A stretch of DNA of 62,014 nucleotides, filler included. It is 12 parts of 12 records of this genome, joined end to end, with 100 filler letters (N's around TTAATTAATTAA, not from the genome) between each part and the next. Parts side by side here need not be neighbours in the genome. Positions count along the whole stretch, not along the records: positions 46,402 to 51,587 come from SRR7504441_23718; 11 more parts are not named here. One strand, given 5' to 3'. The position numbers and the translations under genes are program-made. Shown here in pieces: positions 2,280 to 62,014 of the stretch. The notes beneath the pieces were generated by a model. It saw only the letters and a list, made by a program, of their open reading frames with translations, made no database searches and was not told the origin of the DNA. Each line of letters begins with the position of its first letter. The stretch's first letter is position 1.

Positions 2280-5200
2280 TTAGTTGGCCTCAGCGATGCT
2301 CGCTTGAAGTATTTGCATCGCGCTTTCGGAAGCACTCATGAAAACTACTTGACTGCCCTCCTCCTGGGAGACTTCGCCTTTTCGGTTATCGTGGATATCG
2401 CAGCTACAAACCAGAATGAGCAAAATGCTTGGTGCGGAACTAAGCCAATTACAATGGCGCCATGTATCACCCACCTTTCGACGATCCCAGCTGAGCTCGA
2501 GTCACAGCAGATTCCGAAGCCATTAGCATCGTAGACACGGCATCTCTCGAGGCATACATTTGCTTGGAGTTTCAAGGTGATGTTGTTGCCTGCAGGCTTT
2601 TCTTAGTGATTAAGTCACAAAATGTCAGCCGACCTCTGTTACTATGCAAAGATGAGTCCAACACAGTGGGACTGCTCTGTATGTCCGCATGAAGTCCGTC
2701 AACAAAGCTGTCAAAGATTTCACACTGCACAAGGCTCGGTGCTCCTCCTAAGCTACCTCACATTCGGTGTACAGCCCACGGCCGTCGCTACATACCACAA
2801 TGCCTTCCCCGCTGTCAAAAATGACACACCGAGAGAGAGCTGGCTGGGCTGAGTCACTAACCGCCATGGCACTCTCCAGATGGTCAAATATTTCACAGCG
2901 CTCAAACCGTGGCCGAGATTGGCCAGTGACTGTGATTCCGGTAATCTGTTTAGGTGTGGCCACAACCCCACTCGGGTGCCCCCCAAAGATGGTGCACCTA
3001 TCCAATTGTGGCTGTGACCCTCCAGCAACTACAATACCACTCCCCTGATTATTATATATCTCGCATTGAGTGAGTTTGCCTTTTCCTTTCGCATCTGTCA
3101 GTAGCCCTCCTGCTTCTCCATCGAAGATTGCACACTGTAAAAACGATGGATTCGCCATTGAGCAGACCTTGACATTACTCTGTGTATTGGAATGAATGCT
3201 GCACTGCTCCAAATTTCCCTGACTGCTGTCATCGGCCAATACGCCGTGCTCCTTGGCGAGTGAAATCACGCATTTGAGCATATCAGGGTTGGCACTCGAG
3301 GCAAGCACAACATTGTTTCTCGCACGAATAATCCGACAATCTTCGAATAGGCCAGCACCACCCTCGCAGACAACCAGTCCATCTCCCAGCTCATCCTTGA
3401 TGTCACACTCAAACATGGACGGATTGGCCTTCCCACTTACCAGTACTCCACACTTTCCGCTGTTATCAAATATTCTGCAGTGCGATAAGAGTCCTGAAGC
3501 TGACTCTCTAATCACAATTCCCTCAGCCTCGCTGCGGTAGACACTACACCGTGAGAGCACTAGTTTGGACGCCGCATGCTCAACCAATACGTTTGCCTGC
3601 TTGTTTAGACGAATGTGACAGTTTTCTAAATGCCCTCCGCCCCCTGCCTGAACGCGCACTCCGTGCTCTCCACTGCGCTCGAGTGTACACTCTGCGAGTG
3701 CAGGGTCTGCTCCACTTTTAATCTGTTGCACCCAATCAAATCAGATCAAGTATAGCTGGATGTCAGTACTAGACTAAGCATTAGACAACAGCAACGCATA
3801 GTACCTCGAGAGCTGGGCCTTCGTGTCTGCTCAGCGTGCATCGAAACAAACTGCCTCGACTGCCTGTGGTGGCTATCATGCCCTTGCCTGCATGCGCCGT
3901 GGGCAGCACTGGATGTCGAATCTTTCCCAGGCCAAGATGACAGTCAAGGACTGTTGGGGCACCGCCATCGCTTAGCACCAGCGCTCCGGCTACAGCGGAG
4001 TATACCTCACAGCTCTGAAACGTCCCAAGCCCACCCTGTCGGACCACAATTCCAGGGCCTGTGCACCATCGCACCCCACAGTGGATAAGTGTTGGATTGG
4101 CTGCGTCCTGCAGCACCACTCCAGTCTGATTCCGATGGAACGCGCAGTCTTCAAATGAGCCTCCCCCTCCAGCACCCCAGAGACCAGCTTGGCTATTGTC
4201 TGCCACCAAGCAGCTGTCCAGCTCCAACTCAGCATCATCAGCAGTCACCACCCCGTGCCGAGCATTCTGGCTAATCAGGCATCGATAAAGACTTCCACCG
4301 CCACCCAGGCATTGTACACCATCGCCCTTAGAACAATGGAGCTCGCACAGGCTGAGCATTGGAGCCACCTCCTCCCTCAGGCATAGGCAGCTCTGGTGAG
4401 CCCGGGCCATCACACAGCGGTGCAGTTTAGGACAGGCTCCGGTCCGGACATCCACTGCGTGCTGCCCACCAGAGACTAGGCACCATTCCATGCTGCTGCA
4501 GCACCGGCTGCCGATCACCACCACGGCCGCTGGCGCCGCTGGGTGCTCTGCCCTCATCTCAAGCTCACTCACCAGCGCGTTAGGAGCTGTGATTGTCAGC
4601 GGGGGCAATGGGCCAGAGCACTTAATCACGGGTAGCTTGCGTAGCGCCAGCTTTTGCTCACAATCTTGCATATCTGCTAGCGTGCGGCTGAGTTGAGTCA
4701 GGACCGAAACGGGGAAATTCAAGTAGAGCGGCACACCATCCTGATCTCGAGGGATTGTCTGCTTCACAAAACCGGTCCGGATCATCGCGGTCGTCATCAC
4801 CGCTACCAACTGGCATTTCACTGCTTTGGAGCACTGCGCGAAAAAGTGGCCCTTGGGCTCGGCCACGGGTGCCCCTCGCAGCGTGACGTCCCGGTTGAGG
4901 GTGACCGGCTCGTTGTACTCGCCGGGAGCCAGCAGCACTTGCCCGCCCTTGGCGCAGCACTGGATTGCTGCGTTGATCGACTGGCAGTCCTCCGGCACCC
5001 GCACCTCGGTCATCTGATGCAGCGTATCTGACCTCGGATCCAGCCGGTTTCTACTGAGCTGCCGGCGCATTCCAGGCGAGAGCAGCCCTCCCGCCAGACC
5101 AGGCGGGCCCACCGAATCGGCCAGCCGCGACAGCTCGTCGTTGAGCTCGGCTGAGCGCACCAGGGAGGACACCGCCTGATCCAACTCGGCTGAGGCGCTG

Positions 5201-5297
5201 GCGACAGTCTTGAAACGCAGCTCGGCCTGCCCCCAGGCACCTGTGAGCACAGCGGCGCAGGCGTCCACACCTGTGCCCGCGCGTGCTGCACCTCCAT
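2280..5297 (-). CDS. Right-handed parallel beta-helix repeat protein (pectin-lyase-like / FBXO11-type repeats), multi-exon
   Basis: ORFs 3781-5268, 2748-3731 and 2345-2575 carry SINAAIQCCAKGGQVLLAPGEYNEPVTLNRDVTLRG and many ~23-aa 'CxIxxNxxxGvxv' repeats. Both ends are approximate. Confidence 0.7.
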
Positions 5298-46401: not shown

Positions 46402-46469
46402 GCACTGATCGTTTTTAAAATATTTTCAAGATTCATCTCTTTTTAATTGACAAATGGGTCCACGCGGTC

Positions 46470-49400
46470 TCAAATCCGCGTAGTCTCGGTCTCGAGCGGA
46501 TTGATCGGAACCGTGATAGAAGTGCAAACGTACTCAGCGGGCGAACCGTCCCACCGAGTGCTCGATGGCAAGTTCTCGGCCTTCATTAGGAGTGAGAGGT
46601 GTCCGACAACCACTCTATCGCCAATAGTCGTGAACGCAAGGAGCGAGGTGTCCACCCCAATGCTGCAATCGTCTCCGATCACAATAGGAGCAAACTGCAG
46701 CATGCCTCGGTCGTTTGCGTGCGGGACAAAGGTCCTGCCCATCCCCGTGAGCAATGGCCACAGCTGTAGGCGCACTGTCTGGCCAATTGAATGGCACAGT
46801 TGTCCCCAATTGAGATCACGTCGAGTTCAGCAGGAAGGAGACTGTCATAGAAGACTCCCGAACCGACACTCGCGCCCATTGTTCGCATCCACCCAGGCAG
46901 AATACATGTGCCCTGTCACGTCACAAGTCACATTTGATCATGGTGCAGGCGCACCTGAAACAGCCATAGCATAGTTTCGTTGACAGTTTGCATCACGCTG
47001 CTAAACAGGGCCCAAGCGAGAAACTTCAAAGAGAAGAATGGGGTGCGCCCACTGAACGTTCGACAGCAGAACGCCTTGAGCACGGAGATGATCCCGAGCA
47101 ATATGGCCAGGCTGCCAATTAGTCCTATAGCGAAAGAAACAAGCAAGCTCAAGAGAAACAGCATGGTGCATCCAGGCCCGTCCCCACAGCTGTCCGCTCC
47201 TATCGCTTCACTGATCAGTTTGGCTAGCAGTTGAATCCCTATGGCGAATCCTCCAAACGCCAGTAACGAGAGCGGAGATGCCAGAGCGAGGATTGCCTTC
47301 GTAAATGTGGGGTAGACGCCTTGCACTTGCACCTCGGAATCTTCGGTCCCCTCACCATGGACAAGCTCTTGCAACCGGCGTGTCTCACTCTCATCCTGCA
47401 TGGCTGTACGGCCTCGACCAATCAGAATCGGGGGTGAGCCGATCCACGTTTCGGTGTCTTGCACTGTTTGAGAGATGAGGCCAGTCATTGTGCCTACCTG
47501 AGAAAAGTCACCGAAAACACTGTTTGGACCGATGATAACAGAGTTTCCGAGGATCGCCGTATCGCCCACCTTAATCGCGCCGAAGCGAATCGAGCTGCCC
47601 CCTACCCCGTCGTGCAGCCCTGCCTGCAGAGCCGAGGTGAACATGATGCAGTCGCCTCCGACAAAGCAGCCGCTCCCTATTTCAACCATGTCCAGTCCAC
47701 TACAGAAGCAAGGACCAGCTATGTAGTTTTCCTTGCCAATTCGCACACCGAGCAGCCTCAGAAAAAGGATTTGGGTCAGAGTCTCATCCAACAAAGACAT
47801 TATTGCAAGCTGGGTGCCCATATTCAACAGCATAACGTCGACCATCCATGTACGGCAGAAACTGCATGCTGTGATTTCATAGTCGCCTGGTTCATGTCTG
47901 GGACCGAATGTCCACTTCACCAAAACAGTCATGATTAGGAAGAACAGTAGTATTGGTATGAGCACGAACGTGATGATTATGGTGTTAGACCAGAACTCGC
48001 CTATTGCGCTACTGAGAGCTTTCCGTCCTTCTAACATTGCATATAGTACACAAGCGATGAGTGCGCAGATGAGCAGAACTTCGAAAAACTGTATGGTGCG
48101 CGCAGCCCAGGATAGCGGCGGGCTATGGCCTGTGGTCTTGCAGGATTCCACCAGAACGGGTGGGCAGCCAGCCCAGACCTGGTTGGGGGCCATCTTTGTG
48201 GTGTCCATCTCCATTCCCATTCGAGTCAGGGGATACAAGGTTAGGTCTTCGCTCAGCTGCGCGCCCATCGCAACGAAGCATCGTGGGCCTAGCTTGCAGC
48301 CCGACCCAATTCGCATAGGCGTGGCGATGATCAGGTCAAACTCGACCGTGTGCGCAATCAAAGCACATCCTTCGTCAAAGTCTGCGTTGCACCCAACCTG
48401 GACCAGAAAACTCAGCTCTTGGGCTCACTTCTTATATATTCGAACCTCTATCAAGTCGTGATCCTGAACTTGCGCACCCGAGAAGTTTGTTCCTGAGCCG
48501 ATAGTGGCTCCAAGGAGATTATAAAACAGGCTCGGGGCTGGGGTTCTTCGGAGGAAGCTCAGGACTAGTATGACCGGAAGTCCGTTGGTGATGTGACAAA
48601 TGATCCACCACCGAATAAAGAACCAACCGTGCATCCGCCTATTGCCTGGTCGCTGCTTACACAGGATTAGCCACTTGAGCAGCACCACGCAGCAGCACAT
48701 CAGTAAGAGCAGGGCGAGCAGCACGACCGGGGCCACTGCTGCCACCACATACAGGTCCACCACATCGATCAGGAAAAGCACGCCAAAAACCACAGACCCA
48801 ATCGGCAAGCCGGTGGTAACAGAGACTGCGAAGCTCATCCCGATAATCTGACACGCACGGCTCAATCCCCACCCGGGCCTGCTCTCGGCTGCCTGGAGCG
48901 TTGTCTCTATGCACACGTTCACCCTCCCCTCGCCCGGCACGCTAGGCTCTTGTGCAATCTGGGGCTTTGGGCTCAACGGAGCCTCCTCTTCCAAACTAGG
49001 TCCATCTTTGTCGGGCTTTGGCTGCAGCCCCGGCATAACCGCGTGGTCCGGCGGCGCGTCCTCCTGCTCCTCGCGCTTCCCCGGCACAGTGCGTGCGAGC
49101 GCCACTCGTGCTTCCGCAGGTTGAGCCAGGAACTCGGCCAGTTCACCGAGCCTGGTGTGGCTGTACAGCTCCCGGACCTGCCAGCCGGGTGCCCTCCGGC
49201 AGCGACCCCGACGCACCGACGCGCTTGGGTAGCCGCCCTTGCGGATGGTGTTCACCAGCATCACAGCAGTGAGCGAAGTGCCACCTATAGCTAAGAAGTC
49301 GTCCTGCGGGCCAGGGTCAGCGCTCAGGCCGAGCTTCTTGACCGCAGACAGGACTGCCCGCCCGGTCAGCCTGCAGCTGCAGCGAGCGGGGCGCCTGTGC

Positions 49401-49728
49401 TGAGCGCCTGGAGCACCTCGGGATCCTCGATCGCGCACGAGCTGGCGGCGGCCGGCCCGGGCTTGTTCTGAGTATCGGGCTGTTCAGCGAGGGGGTTTGG
49501 AGAGATCAGGCTGACGTCCTCCGGAGGCACCAGCAGCCCGCACTTGGGGGCGGCTTGAAAGTACCGCTGGCCTTTGATCGTCCCGTCGTTCTTTCCGCGC
49601 GGCTGGTCCAGCTCCACCCCGACGAACATGCCCTCTTTGTAGTGCACCGTCCCGAGGTAGCGCACCGTCCCGTGCAGGCGGTCGTCCACCTGCACGCGCG
49701 CACCCAGCGCCAGCGCCTCGGTCGTCAT
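46470..49728 (-). CDS. CAP-Gly + phosphopantetheine carrier + Pls-type (NRPS terminal) membrane/LbH protein lacking an adenylation domain (~1000 aa, at least 6 introns)
   Basis: CAP-Gly GVELDQPRGKNDGTIKGQRYF. Carrier domain DDFLAIGGTSLTA...VRELYSHTRLGELAEFL. Three TM-pair + hexapeptide blocks end in LSLLMKAENLPSSTRWDGSPA. Confidence 0.85.
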
Positions 49729-49750
49729 GCTGCTCAGCCCAGCCTACTCC

Positions 49751-50338
49751 ATGCATTCATCGCCAAAGCTTGCAGGTCAAGATTCGTTCTCAGTCCCAAC
49801 GGCTGCACAGCCCAAGAGCTTCAGGAGGGACGCTGCGCGGAGCCCACGAAGCCCTGGAGGTCCCGGGGCTGGCCGAGCGGCTGGCCGAGCTGGAGCTCCG
49901 GCTGCAGCTGGCCGAGGCCCAGCTGCCCCGGCGGCCGTTTGTCCCCGCTGACTACCGGAGCGCTGGCTGCGACGCCCACAAGTGCCGGCACGAGGGCTTC
50001 TCGGCCCGGGACTGCCGAGTGGCGGGATACTCGGCGGCCGAGTGCTGGGCGGCCGGATACTCGTCCAGGGACTGCCGGGCGGCCGGGTTTGGGGTCGCCG
50101 AGTGCCTGGAGGCAGGGGCTGTGGCTAGCGCGCGCGACTGCCGAGTGGCCGGGTGAGCCCGGCACCGGAAGCACGGCAGACCGCGGGGGGGGGGGGCAGG
50201 TTCGGAGCGGTGGACTGCCGAGTGGCCGGGTTTAGCGCGGGCGACTGCAACGAGGCTGGTTACAGCGTGCAGGACTGCCGGGACGGGGGCTATTCAGCCA
50301 AGGAGTGTAGGGTGGGAGGATTTGAACACTGGGGCTGA
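49751..50338 (+). CDS. Small protein with Cys-containing 10-aa repeats (AG[FY]SAx[DE]CRx)
   Basis: GFSARDCRVAGYSAAECWAAGYSSRDCRAAGFGVAECLEAG, continued after intron 50153-50199. The start codon is inferred via a putative intron at ~49776-49824. Confidence 0.6.
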
Positions 50339-50691
50339 TTAGCGTGCACTGCAAGCTCGATGAAGGGGCTCTGGGCGGATGGATTCTGTAGCTACACTAG
50401 GCCGACTAGGCCATTGTCAAGTAGGGAGTAGGCAATGACGTAAATCTGCACGGCAGTGCTATTCTTGCGCTCAGTTTGTATCAGTCTCGAGCAGTCTCGA
50501 GGTGAGCAAAATTACGTACAATAACACAACACAACAACACAACGACACAATAGAATTTTGTAGGTTCCTTTAATGTGATTGAACAGCGTGTTCTTAAAAT
50601 TATGTACAAGTAGAAGCTAGGCCCGAATGATTCGGCTAGTAGCTCTACAAGATGCATGATGTAAACTTTTTGCACATCCCCGACCCATGTG

Positions 50692-51587
50692 CTACCTCCG
50701 TAGAGGCCTCAATTGTGTGTCAGTCTCCTCTGCCCACGTCTCAGTGGCGTCATTTAACACCTCCTTCTCGTAGGACGTGAGCCTGGTTTGTTTCTTTGTA
50801 ATGTCGTTGACCAGGTCACTATCCTGCAGCTGTTTATCTAGCTGCGCCTGGTACGGAGCTGGTCTTGCGCGTGAGGGCGAGCTTCGGGGAGGCGACTGTG
50901 ACCGAGCCCTGTTCCCTGCTACTTCAGGCGACCCTGCGTTGACTCTCCCACCACCAGCCTGCCAGTTGAGCACCAATACTTCAGTACACGGATCCGAGCA
51001 CAATAATTGAAGCACAATTACTGGTCGGGGTGTACTGCATTAGTGGCACTCAACCTGCTCTAGTATTTGGGATCTAGGTCAGGGTTAGGGTTAGTGTGGC
51101 GCTGCACCTGTTCTGGTGTCTTGGATCTACCCCTTGGTTGAGTTGGCGTTGCTTGTCCGAGCCTTCGTAGGATAGCGCTCTCCTTGGATCCGTTGGCTCT
51201 GTCATGTTCTCTGTCTGCTCCCAGAGTCCGGCTCTGCGCAGAATTGCGGTGCTTTGGCGAAGCCCCAGCTGACCTTCAGGATTAAACACCAAGAATTCAG
51301 AACCAGGTCTCAAAACCCGCTAAATCGGGTTTTGCAAAACAAGTTCTGGATTGCTGGGGTTCAGTCCAAACAGCAGATAGCCCCAAGGGACGGACTATAA
51401 TATAACTAGACATTTAGATGACAAGTGGATAGCTACCTGGCTGCGTTGGGGCTGAACCGTCGTGTCGGCGCACGCTGCAGTGCCTGTAATCGCATCACTA
51501 GATTATCCGAATCGTCAAGCTGTTTTTTCAGTTGTTGGTTCTTGCTTTCCAGCTCGACAGCATTGTTGTCCCGCCCATGTTGCATTT
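50692..51587 (-). CDS. Hypothetical gene, 3' fragment
   Basis: Coding-like pieces 50692-51015 and 51074-51313, with a coiled-coil-like start at the contig edge. Confidence 0.3.
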
Positions 51588-58203: not shown

Positions 58204-61200
58204 CCAGCCGGCCCGCCTGAGCTGACTGGCCGGGCAGCTCACCGCCGCGCTCGAGTGGCTCTCGCCCGGGGCTGAGTCCCTGCGTCGCCAGGCGGCCGGA
58301 CTGATCCTTGACCAGCTGGCCTGCGCTGCACCCACGATCTTCCACGGTCAGATCAGCACGTTCTGCTCTCGAATCTGGTGTGGACTGTGCGACGACCGGC
58401 GTGAGACCAGGCTGAGTGCCGCTTCGGCGCTCGGCTCGTGCGTGAGGCTGCTCTCAGCTCGGGAGGAGCCGCAGTCAATACGGTGCCGGGTGCGGGCTGC
58501 GGCGCTGAGGGCGTGCAGTCGGTGCGACGAGATTCTAAGTCACGCCGAGCGGCTGATCGAAGCCTCGAGCGGCAACTCGGACGGGGCGCTGCTGGCGCTG
58601 CGGGAGCTGCTAGCCCACAGCCCGCCAGAGTTCATGAAGGCAACTAGCGCCCTAGTGCTCGCTTAGCCCAATGCAGGCGCGTGTCAAGCGAGTGCTGCCG
58701 CCGCTGCACAGCGCCAGCCGGTCACGCAGCCTCGAGACCCGCCGGACCGGCTTTTCTCTGCTCCCGTTTGTGTGTCGGCACAAGCCAGTGGTCCGGTCCG
58801 GGGACATTGCAGGTGGCTTGCGGCTCTGCTGGGTCTGAGCCGCTGCCAGAGCCAATGGGTGCGCTGTTCAAAGCTGTAGACGAGTGGACCGGTCCCGAGA
58901 AGAGCGAGGGGCTCAACGTGGTGGCGGCCGTCTGCCAAGAGCTAGGCCGGAGCTTTCAGCCATGGGCAGCCACAGCGCTGACCAAGGCCAAGCATGCTCT
59001 CCGGAAGGGCAAGCGCCGCAAGGGCAAGGAGGTGCGTGGGCCGGCCGACCGGCTGGCCGAGGCGGCGGGCAGGTGTGCGAGGCGGCGTTGAGGCTGGTGG
59101 GGGCGGTGGCGAGTGGGCTGGGTGGGGCTGTGCAGGAGCTGCTCCTGGAGCAAGGGCTGCTCGAGCTGATGCTGGACACCGGGCTGTCCGACGCGCTCAC
59201 TGTGGCGCTGGGCCAGTTGGTGGAGGCGCTCCCGCCGCTGCTGAGGCCGATGCAGCTCCAGATGCTTGAGGAGATAGCGATCCGGCTGCAGGCGACTGAA
59301 CCCGAGTTGATAGAACCCGCGCTGCACTGCCTGGGCAAATTTGAGTGGACCGGCCAGCAGCTCGCCGAGCTGGTGCACCAAGCGGTGCTCCCACTGGTCG
59401 AGGCCGGCCCGTCCAAGTCGATCCGTCTTGCCGCTGCCACCGCCAGCTGCCACGCGCTGCTGCCACCGGATCTGCCGCTCCGGAGGGGCAAGCTGGCCGA
59501 GTTGACATCCAAGGTGCTCGGGCGGCTGATTGCAGTGGCGGTGAGCGACGGCGACCCTGCCATCCGGCTGGCGCTGCTCAACACGCTGGACAGTCGGTTT
59601 GATCGGTTGCTCAGCCAGCCTGAGCAGCTTCACAAGCTGTTTGTGTTGCTTTCAGACGCCGAGCTCGAAGTGAGGCAGGCTGCCATCCGACTGCTCGAGC
59701 GGCTGGTCCCGATAAATACTGCCATAATCATGCCAGGCTTCCGCCGGCTTCTAATCCAGCTGCTGCTCCAGATCCAAAACGCGGTCCCAAACAGCCAACT
59801 GTCGGTGGAGTCCACAATCCTGGTGGCATGCTTGATCAAGGCAGCCGGCTCGCTCATTGGGCCGTACGTGCGCACAATCGCCCGAGTGATCAGCCCCCAG
59901 CTCTCGTCGCCGCAGCCAAGAGTGGCCATGCGCGCGCTTGAGGTTGTGCAGCGGCTGGGCGCGGTGTGTGGGACTGAGCTGGATCCAGCGCTGCTCATCC
60001 CTCCAATAATCGACTCGCTGGCCGACCAGCACGAGACCAAGCGGCGGCTGGTGCTGCACACGCTCGGGGTGCTGCTCCAGGCCTCCGGGCACGTTGTTCG
60101 GCCGCTGTTTGAGCAACCCAGGCTGCTGGAATTGTTACTCTCGTCGCTCTCGGCCTCGCAGCAGCCGCTCGAGGTCCGAATCGAGGCGATCAAGGTATTC
60201 GGTATCCTAGGCGCTGTCGACCCTCTGCTCTACCGGATGCACCACGCCAGCACCGGCAGCGCGCAGGCTGACGTGCCGGTGCCAGCTGACACAGTGACAG
60301 TGCAGTGGAAGCGGTCGACTACGGCTGCGGCTGGCCCAGACGCTGACTCAGAGGAGCTGGAGCTGCTGGCCAACGTACGCCCATCCCAGCCCGAGTACTA
60401 TCCGTCGGTGGCAGTGCTTACTGTCCGCAGAGTGCTCCGGGACCCAACTCTATCTAAGCAGCCGCATGCCTTGGCCCAGGCCATGCACGCGCTCCGATTC
60501 ATTTTCAAGTCCCTTGGAACCAAGTCACAACAGTACCTGAGCCTGACCCTACCGGCCATCTACTCGTTGGTCTCAAGCTCCGCCGTGCCGGTTCAGAAAC
60601 TGCTGGTGACTGAGATAGTCCAGATAGCCTCAATCGCCAAGCAGCACGTGCGGCCATATGTGGCCTCGCTTATGTGGCTCACGTTCGAGTATTGGTCAGT
60701 GCCTGAACTGCTCTCGCCGTTGGTGCTGCTGGTGGAGCAGCTAGCACTTGCACTGCAGCATGAATTTGAGCCAGAGATGCGCCGACTGCTGCCCCAGCTG
60801 CTTCAGCTGCTCCACCCGTCCAGCTTTGACGCTGAAGGTGATGGACCTGGGGCCACTGAGTCGCTCAGGGTTCTGGCCGCGTACAGCCCACACCTGGGGG
60901 ACTCGCTGTTGGTGGTGCTGCCTGTGCTGGTCAACCTCTTCGCATGCAAGCGTGTATCGCCCAAGCTGCGCAGTCAGGCAGTCGAGATGCTCACTCAGCT
61001 CGGGCTGCAGCGGTCGATGCACAGCTTCAGCTCACAGCTGATGCACCCTCTAATGCGGTTACTGGAGGAGCCACACCCCGAGCTCATTTTGGCGGCACTC
61101 GAGCTGCTTACGAACATGGTCCGGTCGCTTGGGCCACAGTTCGGCGTGTTCCTGGGTAGTTGCCAGCGTGTTCTCGAGCGCCAACAGATTTGCCACCCAG

Positions 61201-62014
61201 CATTCGATGAGGCTGTGCTACGCATGAATGATAACGAGTGGCGGCGGACCCGGCAGCAGTCGGCCCTGCAAGCGCTCAAGAAGCCGGCAGACGAAAACGG
61301 CAAGGACCCTGGGAGCAAGCTGCAAGTCAACCAGAGCATCTTGAAGAAGGCATGGGACACTTCAGAGTGCAGCTCGGCTGCTGACTGGCAGTACTGGTTC
61401 GAGCGGCTGTGCTCCGAGCTGCTGAACCAGTCATCCTCACCAGCGCTCCGGGCGTGCGTCGGGCTGGTACAGGTGAACAAAATGCTCCCGCGCGAGCTGT
61501 TCAACACCAGCTTTGCTTCGTGCTGGGTGGAGCTGTTTCAGCCCTATCAGGACGCGCTGGTCAGCGCGCTTGAAGAGGCGCTGCTGGCGCCAAACGTGCC
61601 ATTAGACATCTTGCAGTGCATCCTTGGACTAGCTGAATTCATGGAACACGACGACGTCCCGATCCCAATCGATATAGGCCAGCTGGGCGAAGTAGCTGAG
61701 CAGTGCCACGTGTATGCCAAGGCGCTCCACTACAAGGAGAGCCAGTTCATGGCCAGCCCATGTGCTGGGCTGGTGGAGCCGCTCATCTCGATCAACACCC
61801 AGCTGATGCAGCAGGAGGCGGCGCTTGGGATCCTGATCTATGGCCAGCAGCACCTGGAGGTCAATCCACGCACTTCGTGGTATCAGAAGCTACAGCGCTG
61901 GGACGAGGCACTCGAGGCGTATGAGTTGTCGCCTGAGCCAATGGGCGAGGAGGCGCTGCTTGGCCGGGTGCAGTGTCTGCAGGCTTTGCTCAAGTGGGAC
62001 GCTGTGATGGCGCT
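58204..62014 (+). CDS. TOR: TOR kinase (HEAT repeats to start of FAT domain), truncated at both ends
   Basis: ALEWL...RRQAAGLILDQLA, LKKAWD...DWQYWFERLCSELLNQSSSPALRAC, LFNTSFASCWVEL, LAEFMEHD, YAKALHYKE, LISINTQL and WYQKLQRWDEAL. The frame stays open from ~59073 to the window end, so it is missing from the ORF track. Confidence 0.95.

Follow-up and report, generated by a model that had tools for sequence, protein, structure and literature searches.

The window analysed here is a stretch of 62,014 nucleotides, and one of its contigs, 46402-51587 (5186 bp), carries on the minus strand a gene, 49728-46470, whose spliced product of ~1015 amino acids is laid out as a CAP-Gly domain, a carrier (T) domain and three blocks, each made of a transmembrane (TM) pair and a left-handed beta-helix (LbH). 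On the balance of the evidence it is read as a CAP-Gly-T-Pls membrane protein that lacks an adenylation (A) domain, whose T domain would be loaded in trans and which would be docked on microtubules. This is probably a real new architecture within a known family, that of the Pls and PosA polymer synthetases. The architecture is curious, but it rests on one short metagenomic contig, one candidate junction and a single occurrence. It should be noted that the window is made of 12 contigs of ~4-7 kb each with N44-TTAATTAATTAA-N44 linkers, which carry stops in all six frames, between them (11 linker sites, 7514-58203); these contigs were joined artificially, so that distances between them and gene order across them have no meaning. 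A preliminary description of this DNA had called the contig continuous, a statement that needs qualifying, since it can refer to 46402-51587 only. The gene was modelled from coordinates as six exons separated by five tiny introns of 41, 39, 48, 42 and 41 nt, the last four of which were absent from that description:

49395-49728, minus strand: exon 1, with the ATG at 49728, CAP-Gly at ~49513-49707, a Pro/Ala-rich linker and the start of the T region; GC content at third codon positions (GC3) 0.82-0.95.
49354-49394, minus strand: candidate intron 1, 41 nt, GC..AG, with CTGAC 13-17 nt from its 3' end, at the CAP-Gly/T junction.
49377-49438, minus strand: alternative intron 1, 62 nt, GT..AG, which also restores the frame.
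49217-49353, minus strand: exon 2, the T core with GGTSL and the serine codon 49274-49276; matches Pfam PP-binding and aligns with the T domain of 11 relatives.
49178-49216, minus strand: intron 2, 39 nt, GT..AG, in frame; its removal improves the carrier-domain profile match.
48446-49177, minus strand: exon 3, the end of T, an acidic/Pro-rich linker, TM pair 1 (~48650-48832) and the start of LbH block 1; TIGR02353 E 7e-10.
48398-48445, minus strand: intron 3, 48 nt, GT..AG; its removal rebuilds a DL..(I/V)G motif.
46955-48397, minus strand: exon 4, 481 codons, with LbH 1, TM pair 2 (~47900-48109), LbH 2 and TM pair 3 (~47051-47296).
46913-46954, minus strand: intron 4, 42 nt, GT..AG; its joint is present in an RNA contig.
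46776-46912, minus strand: exon 5, the start of LbH block 3 (QGT..R..G...G, E911, D913), conserved columns kept; RNA contig on 46862-46911.
46735-46775, minus strand: intron 5, 41 nt, GT..AG; its removal restores the spacing from GD.C to FVPH.
46470-46734, minus strand: exon 6, the remainder of LbH block 3 with His933 (46719-46721), LMKAE and RWDGSPA, and the stop TGA at 46470-46472; TIGR02353 E 4.3e-12.

Four of the five introns have independent support, either from homology or from a transcript joint. When intron 2 is removed, the match to a purpose-built carrier-domain (PCP) profile, made from 21 relatives, rises from 26.4 to 39.9 bits and its extent along the profile changes from 29-63 to 30-84. 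Removal of intron 3 gives the DL..(I/V)G motif a spacing identical to that in two relatives, P0003 and P0160, and removal of intron 5 leaves 16 residues between GD.C and FVPH, the same number as in P0003; a 49-nt GC-AG form of intron 5 was rejected because it breaks the frame. Intron 4 is supported by a contig from a polyA metatranscriptome run (X3), in which the joint 46911|46954 skips 42 nt, reads CT..AC on the plus strand and has 50 nt on its shorter side. The RNA data came from three marine metatranscriptome runs, each of which held 5-10% of the words sampled from the contig, and the RNA contigs cover 46561-47237 and 50580-51514, with none on 49082-50579, so that the CAP-Gly/T junction and the 5' end lie outside their coverage. 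Within the gene, RNA contigs at least 99% alike fall on exons 4-6, including 46954-47037 and 47096-47237 in exon 4 and 46561-46711 in exon 6. A 34-nt RNA piece at 49048-49081 with 3 mismatches was discarded as too weak. Overall, a single spliced and expressed nuclear gene encoding a polytopic membrane protein of this length is somewhat favoured.

The CAP-Gly domain is intact, as the preliminary description had stated: the open reading frame (ORF) at 49366-49728 on the minus strand matches PF01302 over profile positions 1-65 of 65 with 90.4 bits (cut-off 26.5; E 6.8e-26), and its translation holds an undisturbed GKNDG motif followed by RYF. Its best solved relatives are the CAP-Gly domains of CLIP-115 and CLIP-170 at E 1e-16 (CLIP-115 structure 2cp3, E 1.4e-16).

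Downstream of it, a carrier domain with its phosphopantetheine serine directly precedes the membrane domain, as in the Pls/PosA family. PP-binding matches at E 6.7e-5 in the unspliced ORF 48425-49438, and the T domain aligns end to end with those of relatives once intron 2 is taken out; both the GGTSL motif and the position of the serine codon agree with what had been reported before. The three TM-pair plus LbH blocks noticed earlier were likewise recovered, since six TM helices in three pairs, each pair followed by an LbH block (~180 amino acids in the family), emerge from TIGR02353, hydropathy and Hexapep matches. TIGR02353 matches three ORF pieces at E 7e-10, 8.4e-29 and 4.3e-12, of which the second, in exon 4, spans profile positions 2-339 and is accompanied by a Pfam Hexapep match, while the last ends at position 695 of 695 with RWDGSPA. 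The hydrophobic pairs of the spliced model lie at residues 273-333, 498-567 and 769-850; the first falls in exon 3, where the conserved KW, G, R and W columns are also present. Against a purpose-built family profile made from 97 C-terminal domains (training minimum 446 bits, median 877), the spliced protein gives a single continuous match of 402.9 bits, in which positions 54-746 of 813 align with residues 262-1000, a coverage equal to that of P0003, P0154 and P0162. At columns conserved in at least 80% of the 97 relatives, the consensus residue is kept at 54 of 85, including most of the columns conserved in at least 95%; among the residues kept are KW325-326, R346, W348, E911, D913, K979, E981 and H933, the last conserved in 97% of these relatives. 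A domain scan of the unspliced ORF pieces thus returned CAP_GLY, PP-binding and TIGR02353 without AMP-binding, as had been anticipated, and the ESM Atlas yielded unnamed Hexapep clusters only.

CAP-Gly and the T-Pls part are quite probably one protein. No ATG precedes the serine in the frame of the T domain, which begins to be open at 49438 and shares some sequence with the end of the CAP-Gly ORF; lacking an ATG of its own and closed by a stop above 49438, this frame cannot be translated alone, and both splice models, the 41-nt GC-AG and the 62-nt GT-AG intron, fuse it to CAP-Gly in one frame. The opposing view is that there are two genes, one for a stand-alone CAP-Gly protein of 120 amino acids with its stop at 49366 and, immediately downstream, a separate one for T-Pls, the fusion being an artefact of modelling. 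This view can point to the in-frame stop of the CAP-Gly ORF, to a junction intron that lacks independent support and to a favoured splice model that needs a GC donor, but it is improbable: a separate gene could not make the conserved intact T domain from this frame, the 15 nt from the stop to T helix 1 leave no intergenic space, and GC3 and codon usage continue smoothly from one part to the other.

As to which splice joins the two parts, codon usage favours the 41-nt intron over the 62-nt alternative: when scored as coding sequence, the 14 codons kept only by the 41-nt model (segment 49437-49396) reach +7.08 bits in the CAP-Gly frame versus -4.98 and -10.45 in the other frames, and the 7 codons kept only by the 62-nt model score -0.99 bits. 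The carrier-domain profile does not separate the models (39.8 bits for the 41-nt and 39.0 for the 62-nt form), and in a MAFFT alignment helix 1 is better placed by the 41-nt model, which is an alignment impression only. Of the 41-nt GC-AG intron proposed in the preliminary description, the stretch 49394-49354 with its CTGAC and the restored frame stand; the splice itself is a modelled one, however, and the 62-nt GT-AG form also works.

A one-base assembly error would likewise give the fusion. A broader suspicion, that the assembly joined or collapsed unrelated sequence near 49400 or that the true 5' exons, an A domain included, sit on another contig, appears quite remote. It fits a very fragmented assembly with contigs of 4-7 kb, the difference in GC content between the 5' part (0.62-0.69) and the 3' part (0.43-0.57), and divergent genes that leave almost no promoter space. 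However, the GC3 change is a gradient, falling smoothly from 0.95 to ~0.55 from 5' to 3' within the gene with no step at 49400, and it peaks where the divergent genes meet and in the neighbouring gene (GC 0.75), a pattern that looks like a promoter-centred GC island and not like a join. An accidental join would moreover have had to keep a spliceable frame, and there is no repeated 14-mer at the junction (none of the 14-mers from 49250-49520 recurs elsewhere in the window). Two other genes, backed by Pfam or RNA evidence, occupy the upstream 1.86 kb, and run X3 has contigs from both ends of the contig, which lends weak support to its integrity.

Given one protein, the gene is very probably truly without an A domain. 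AMP-binding was found by Pfam scan in none of the four ORF pieces, and tblastn with four A-domain queries returned nothing below E 0.36 in the 62-kb window. The upstream part of the contig holds two further genes:

49727-50338, plus strand: a divergent Decapeptide-repeat gene, PF25296 at 55.5 bits (cut-off 45) with a second ORF at 42.6 bits; candidate ATGs at 49727 and 49751.
50580-51587, minus strand: a separate upstream gene, running off the contig end, with an intron of 163 nt (51272-51434, GT..AG) and the end of its ORF at 50692.

An A-domain exon is unlikely because it would have to sit beyond both of these genes. The earlier remark that an opposite-strand gene within tens of nucleotides leaves no room upstream for an A domain is borne out by the PF25296 gene, which begins within ~25 nt. 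Upstream of the ATG of the gene under study, AG acceptors occur at 5 and 15 nt and an in-frame stop, TAG, occupies the 16th-18th bases. The separate upstream gene is represented by RNA contigs from runs X1, X2 and X3, with the joint 51271|51435 in X1; its product is coiled-coil-like and belongs to no Pfam family, and RNA contigs of two studies end at 50580 and 50609, in an AT-rich stretch (GC 0.39). The Decapeptide-repeat gene has an apparent 43-nt intron and one of ~48 nt, the latter with a run of 13 G.

The absence of an A domain is not peculiar to this gene. A HMMER search with exon 4, exhaustive over 1.84 billion representatives, returned 521 proteins at E of 0.001 or less, the best being P0003 (922 amino acids, E 5e-40, 28% identity), and a word-indexed search with the same exon among longer proteins gave 2 matches, both canonical A-T-Pls. 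From these, a family set of 165 proteins was assembled (150 listed of the 521, the 2 from the word-indexed search and 13 cluster members). An A domain, whole or truncated, is present in 99 of the 165 and lacking in 66, many of which are fragments; P0154, from the cluster of the second-best match, retains the end of an A domain. Complete-looking members without an A domain, in which a Met stands directly before T, are P0003, P0074, P0076, P0097, P0106, P0139 and P0144. Other members carry partners of a different kind, namely KS...ACP (P0162), ACP-Pls-AT (P0139), Pls-AT (P0138) and SDR-Pls (P0126), and these KS-ACP, malonyl-type AT and SDR fusions suggest donors other than amino acids. The A-less state recurs in the family, and CAP-Gly is its singular element. 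The preliminary description had placed CAP-Gly where an A domain should be, a wording that is not supported, given that T-first members without an A domain exist without CAP-Gly; because of these relatives and of the other loading modules, it is preferable to regard CAP-Gly as something added to a form that already lacked an A domain, and not as a module that took the place of that domain.

Several observations weigh against a CAP-Gly-T-Pls protein of the kind proposed. Neither homology nor a transcript joint backs intron 1, which in this respect stands alone among the five; its favoured donor is a GC on a contig where every other donor read is GT (five of them GTGCG- or GTTCG-like), and the competing 62-nt form begins with GTGCGC, a perfect donor. 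The assembly is fragmented, this contig being a piece of 5.2 kb, and there is no orthologue in which the fusion recurs, the closest relative having 28% identity. CAP-Gly occurs in 0 of the 165 family proteins and in 0 of 53 related metagenome loci (tblastn, E up to 1) found with a 3-sequence alignment, which are 20-30% identical and include no close orthologue. Neither a loader (A, AT or KS) nor a phosphopantetheinyl transferase (PPTase) was found in the 62-kb window, where the queries had no significant match; the preliminary description had proposed looking through the genome for stand-alone A domains and a PPTase. The divergent start codons lie 0-23 nt apart and leave no ordinary space for a promoter or 5' untranslated region: with ATGs at 49727 or 49751 on one strand and 49728-49726 on the other, which overlap or stand 23 nt apart, the two 5' ends must overlap, and for want of such room an unseen upstream exon is possible. 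Finally, the summed TIGR02353 score of 183.5 bits (37.9 + 100.4 + 45.2, from the unspliced pieces only) compares with a curated cut-off of 423.1, and the 402.9 bits on the family profile are below the lowest training member at 446; scores below the curated and training levels mark the protein as a divergent family member.

CAP-Gly domains bind the EEY/F C-terminal tails of alpha-tubulin and EB proteins. If the protein works as its domains suggest, both ends of each TM hairpin would lie on one side of the membrane, and by what is known of the family CAP-Gly, T and all three LbH blocks should for that reason be cytoplasmic. Loading of the T domain might take place in trans, by an A domain from a different gene or by another loader, as the A-less relatives would also require, a step that is suggested more weakly. 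The acyl or aminoacyl group held as a thioester on T would then be passed by the LbH pseudo-trimer to an acceptor amine, with an amide or isopeptide bond as the result; this transfer may be iterative, and the product would probably exit via the TM bundle. As the protein has no A domain, it offers no specificity code that could point to a diamino acid. CAP-Gly, again on weaker grounds, could dock the enzyme and its membrane or vesicle on EEY/F-type tails of alpha-tubulin or EB proteins, by which synthesis would be placed along microtubules or at their ends. Carrier-dependent amide formation is reasonably likely; microtubule tethering, which draws on general knowledge of CAP-Gly, is more tentative.

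The chemistry could also be of another kind, in which T is vestigial or regulatory and the LbH domain uses soluble acyl-CoA as hexapeptide acyltransferases do, with a lipid, sugar or protein as the acyl acceptor at a membrane held on microtubules. In its favour, galactoside/maltose-type O-acetyltransferases (E ~2e-4) are the only solved relatives by sequence, T-less family members such as the SDR-Pls protein P0126 exist, and no loader was found in the window. A PDB search found no solved structure of a Pls-type domain, and a literature search no cryo-EM paper on poly-L-lysine synthetase. The acyl-CoA alternative is nonetheless unlikely: the serine of T is retained and the similarity runs over the full length of the domain, the conservation of T among A-less relatives argues for its use, and the family-specific columns H933, E911 and D913 are kept. 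A bolder extension of the carrier-dependent reading would have CAP-Gly present an acidic alpha-tubulin or EB-like tail to the LbH sites as an amine or acceptor substrate or as a primer, which would amount to a membrane-bound, carrier-protein-dependent modification of cytoskeletal tails independent of TTLL enzymes; or the protein might be a polymerase guided by microtubules, whose cationic isopeptide polymer would be extruded into a specific vesicle or surface site set by microtubule ends. This extension is highly speculative and most improbable.

Should the fusion be true, it would wire a thiotemplate-type membrane amide synthase to the eukaryotic cytoskeleton, a new way to localise the synthesis of natural products or polymers, and the range of proteins on which CAP-Gly is known, otherwise linkers, motor-associated proteins and tubulin chaperones, would gain a member of a new kind. 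The occurrence of the TM/LbH 'terminal domain' with T-only, KS-ACP, AT and SDR partners suggests that it is a portable acyl-acceptor module of general use in protists and bacteria. To our knowledge, products of TM/LbH domains are known only for a few bacterial and fungal cationic homopolymers.

The remaining contigs of the window carry eukaryotic genes (mTOR, PIP5K, SET, ankyrin, aquaporin and sulfatase). The mTOR N-terminal fragment, at 58884-62012 on the plus strand, is a single open frame of 1043 codons. The source organism appears to be a GC-rich, uncultured marine protist. It is also a poorly sampled one, as no long protein found exceeds 34% identity to this fragment (over 91-93% of the query) and the collection searched has no close relative. 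At 2748-5268 on the minus strand of the window, two adjoining ORFs encode right-handed beta-helix repeats (PF13229, NosD-like; E 1e-42 and 4e-22).

Among known systems, the closest are Pls of Streptomyces albulus and PosA of Acinetobacter baumannii, which are built as A-T-(TM2-C1)(TM2-C2)(TM2-C3) and belong to NCBIfam TIGR02353, 'Pls/PosA family'. According to the literature account of the family, the C-terminal domain of Pls/PosA is needed for polymerisation, and its predicted fold is a pseudo-threefold bundle with three LbH units above six membrane helices (PMC10522769). The protein described here shares with them a T domain ahead of three TM pairs (six helices) and three LbH blocks, a C terminus at the last profile position and most of the conserved columns; it differs in lacking an A domain, in its N-terminal CAP-Gly, in an identity of 22-28% and in being encoded by a nuclear, intron-bearing gene. 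The HLFEDRVMK-like motif of Pls/PosA reads HANDRGMLQ here, as in its eukaryote-like relatives. A gene with an 'NRPS_term_dom' in the dinoflagellate Cladocopium is called 'of unknown function' in a preprint (bioRxiv 10.64898/2026.09.08.749829), the sole paper found to use that name for the domain. The preliminary description knew of no report of this architecture, and the literature search agrees: it found no paper linking CAP-Gly to the poly-L-lysine synthetase family, with the supplementary lists of eukaryotic homologues in PMC10522769, which lie outside that search, as a place that might contain similar architectures. The papers found that mention both CAP-Gly and nonribosomal peptides look unrelated by their titles and the beginnings of their abstracts.

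The A-less relatives from metagenomes and metatranscriptomes (P0003, P0074, P0076, P0097, P0106 and P0144) resemble the present protein from T onwards, with a Met start, T within the first ~13-50 residues and the three-block domain, and P0003 has the motifs LQELVHG and FVPH..DRGMLQFAP in common with it; they differ in having no CAP-Gly and are known here from protein sequences alone. In the KS-ACP, AT and SDR fusions (P0162, P0139, P0138 and P0126), the TM/LbH domain serves as a portable acceptor module with different donors in microbes and protists, and the partners are biosynthetic, whereas the partner here is a cytoskeleton-binding module. The CAP-Gly domains of CLIP-115, CLIP-170, CLIPR-59 and p150Glued are like the present one in being complete, with GKNDG and RYF. 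Those of the CLIP proteins and p150Glued sit on coiled-coil linker or motor-associated proteins, while in the gene described here CAP-Gly heads a polytopic membrane enzyme.

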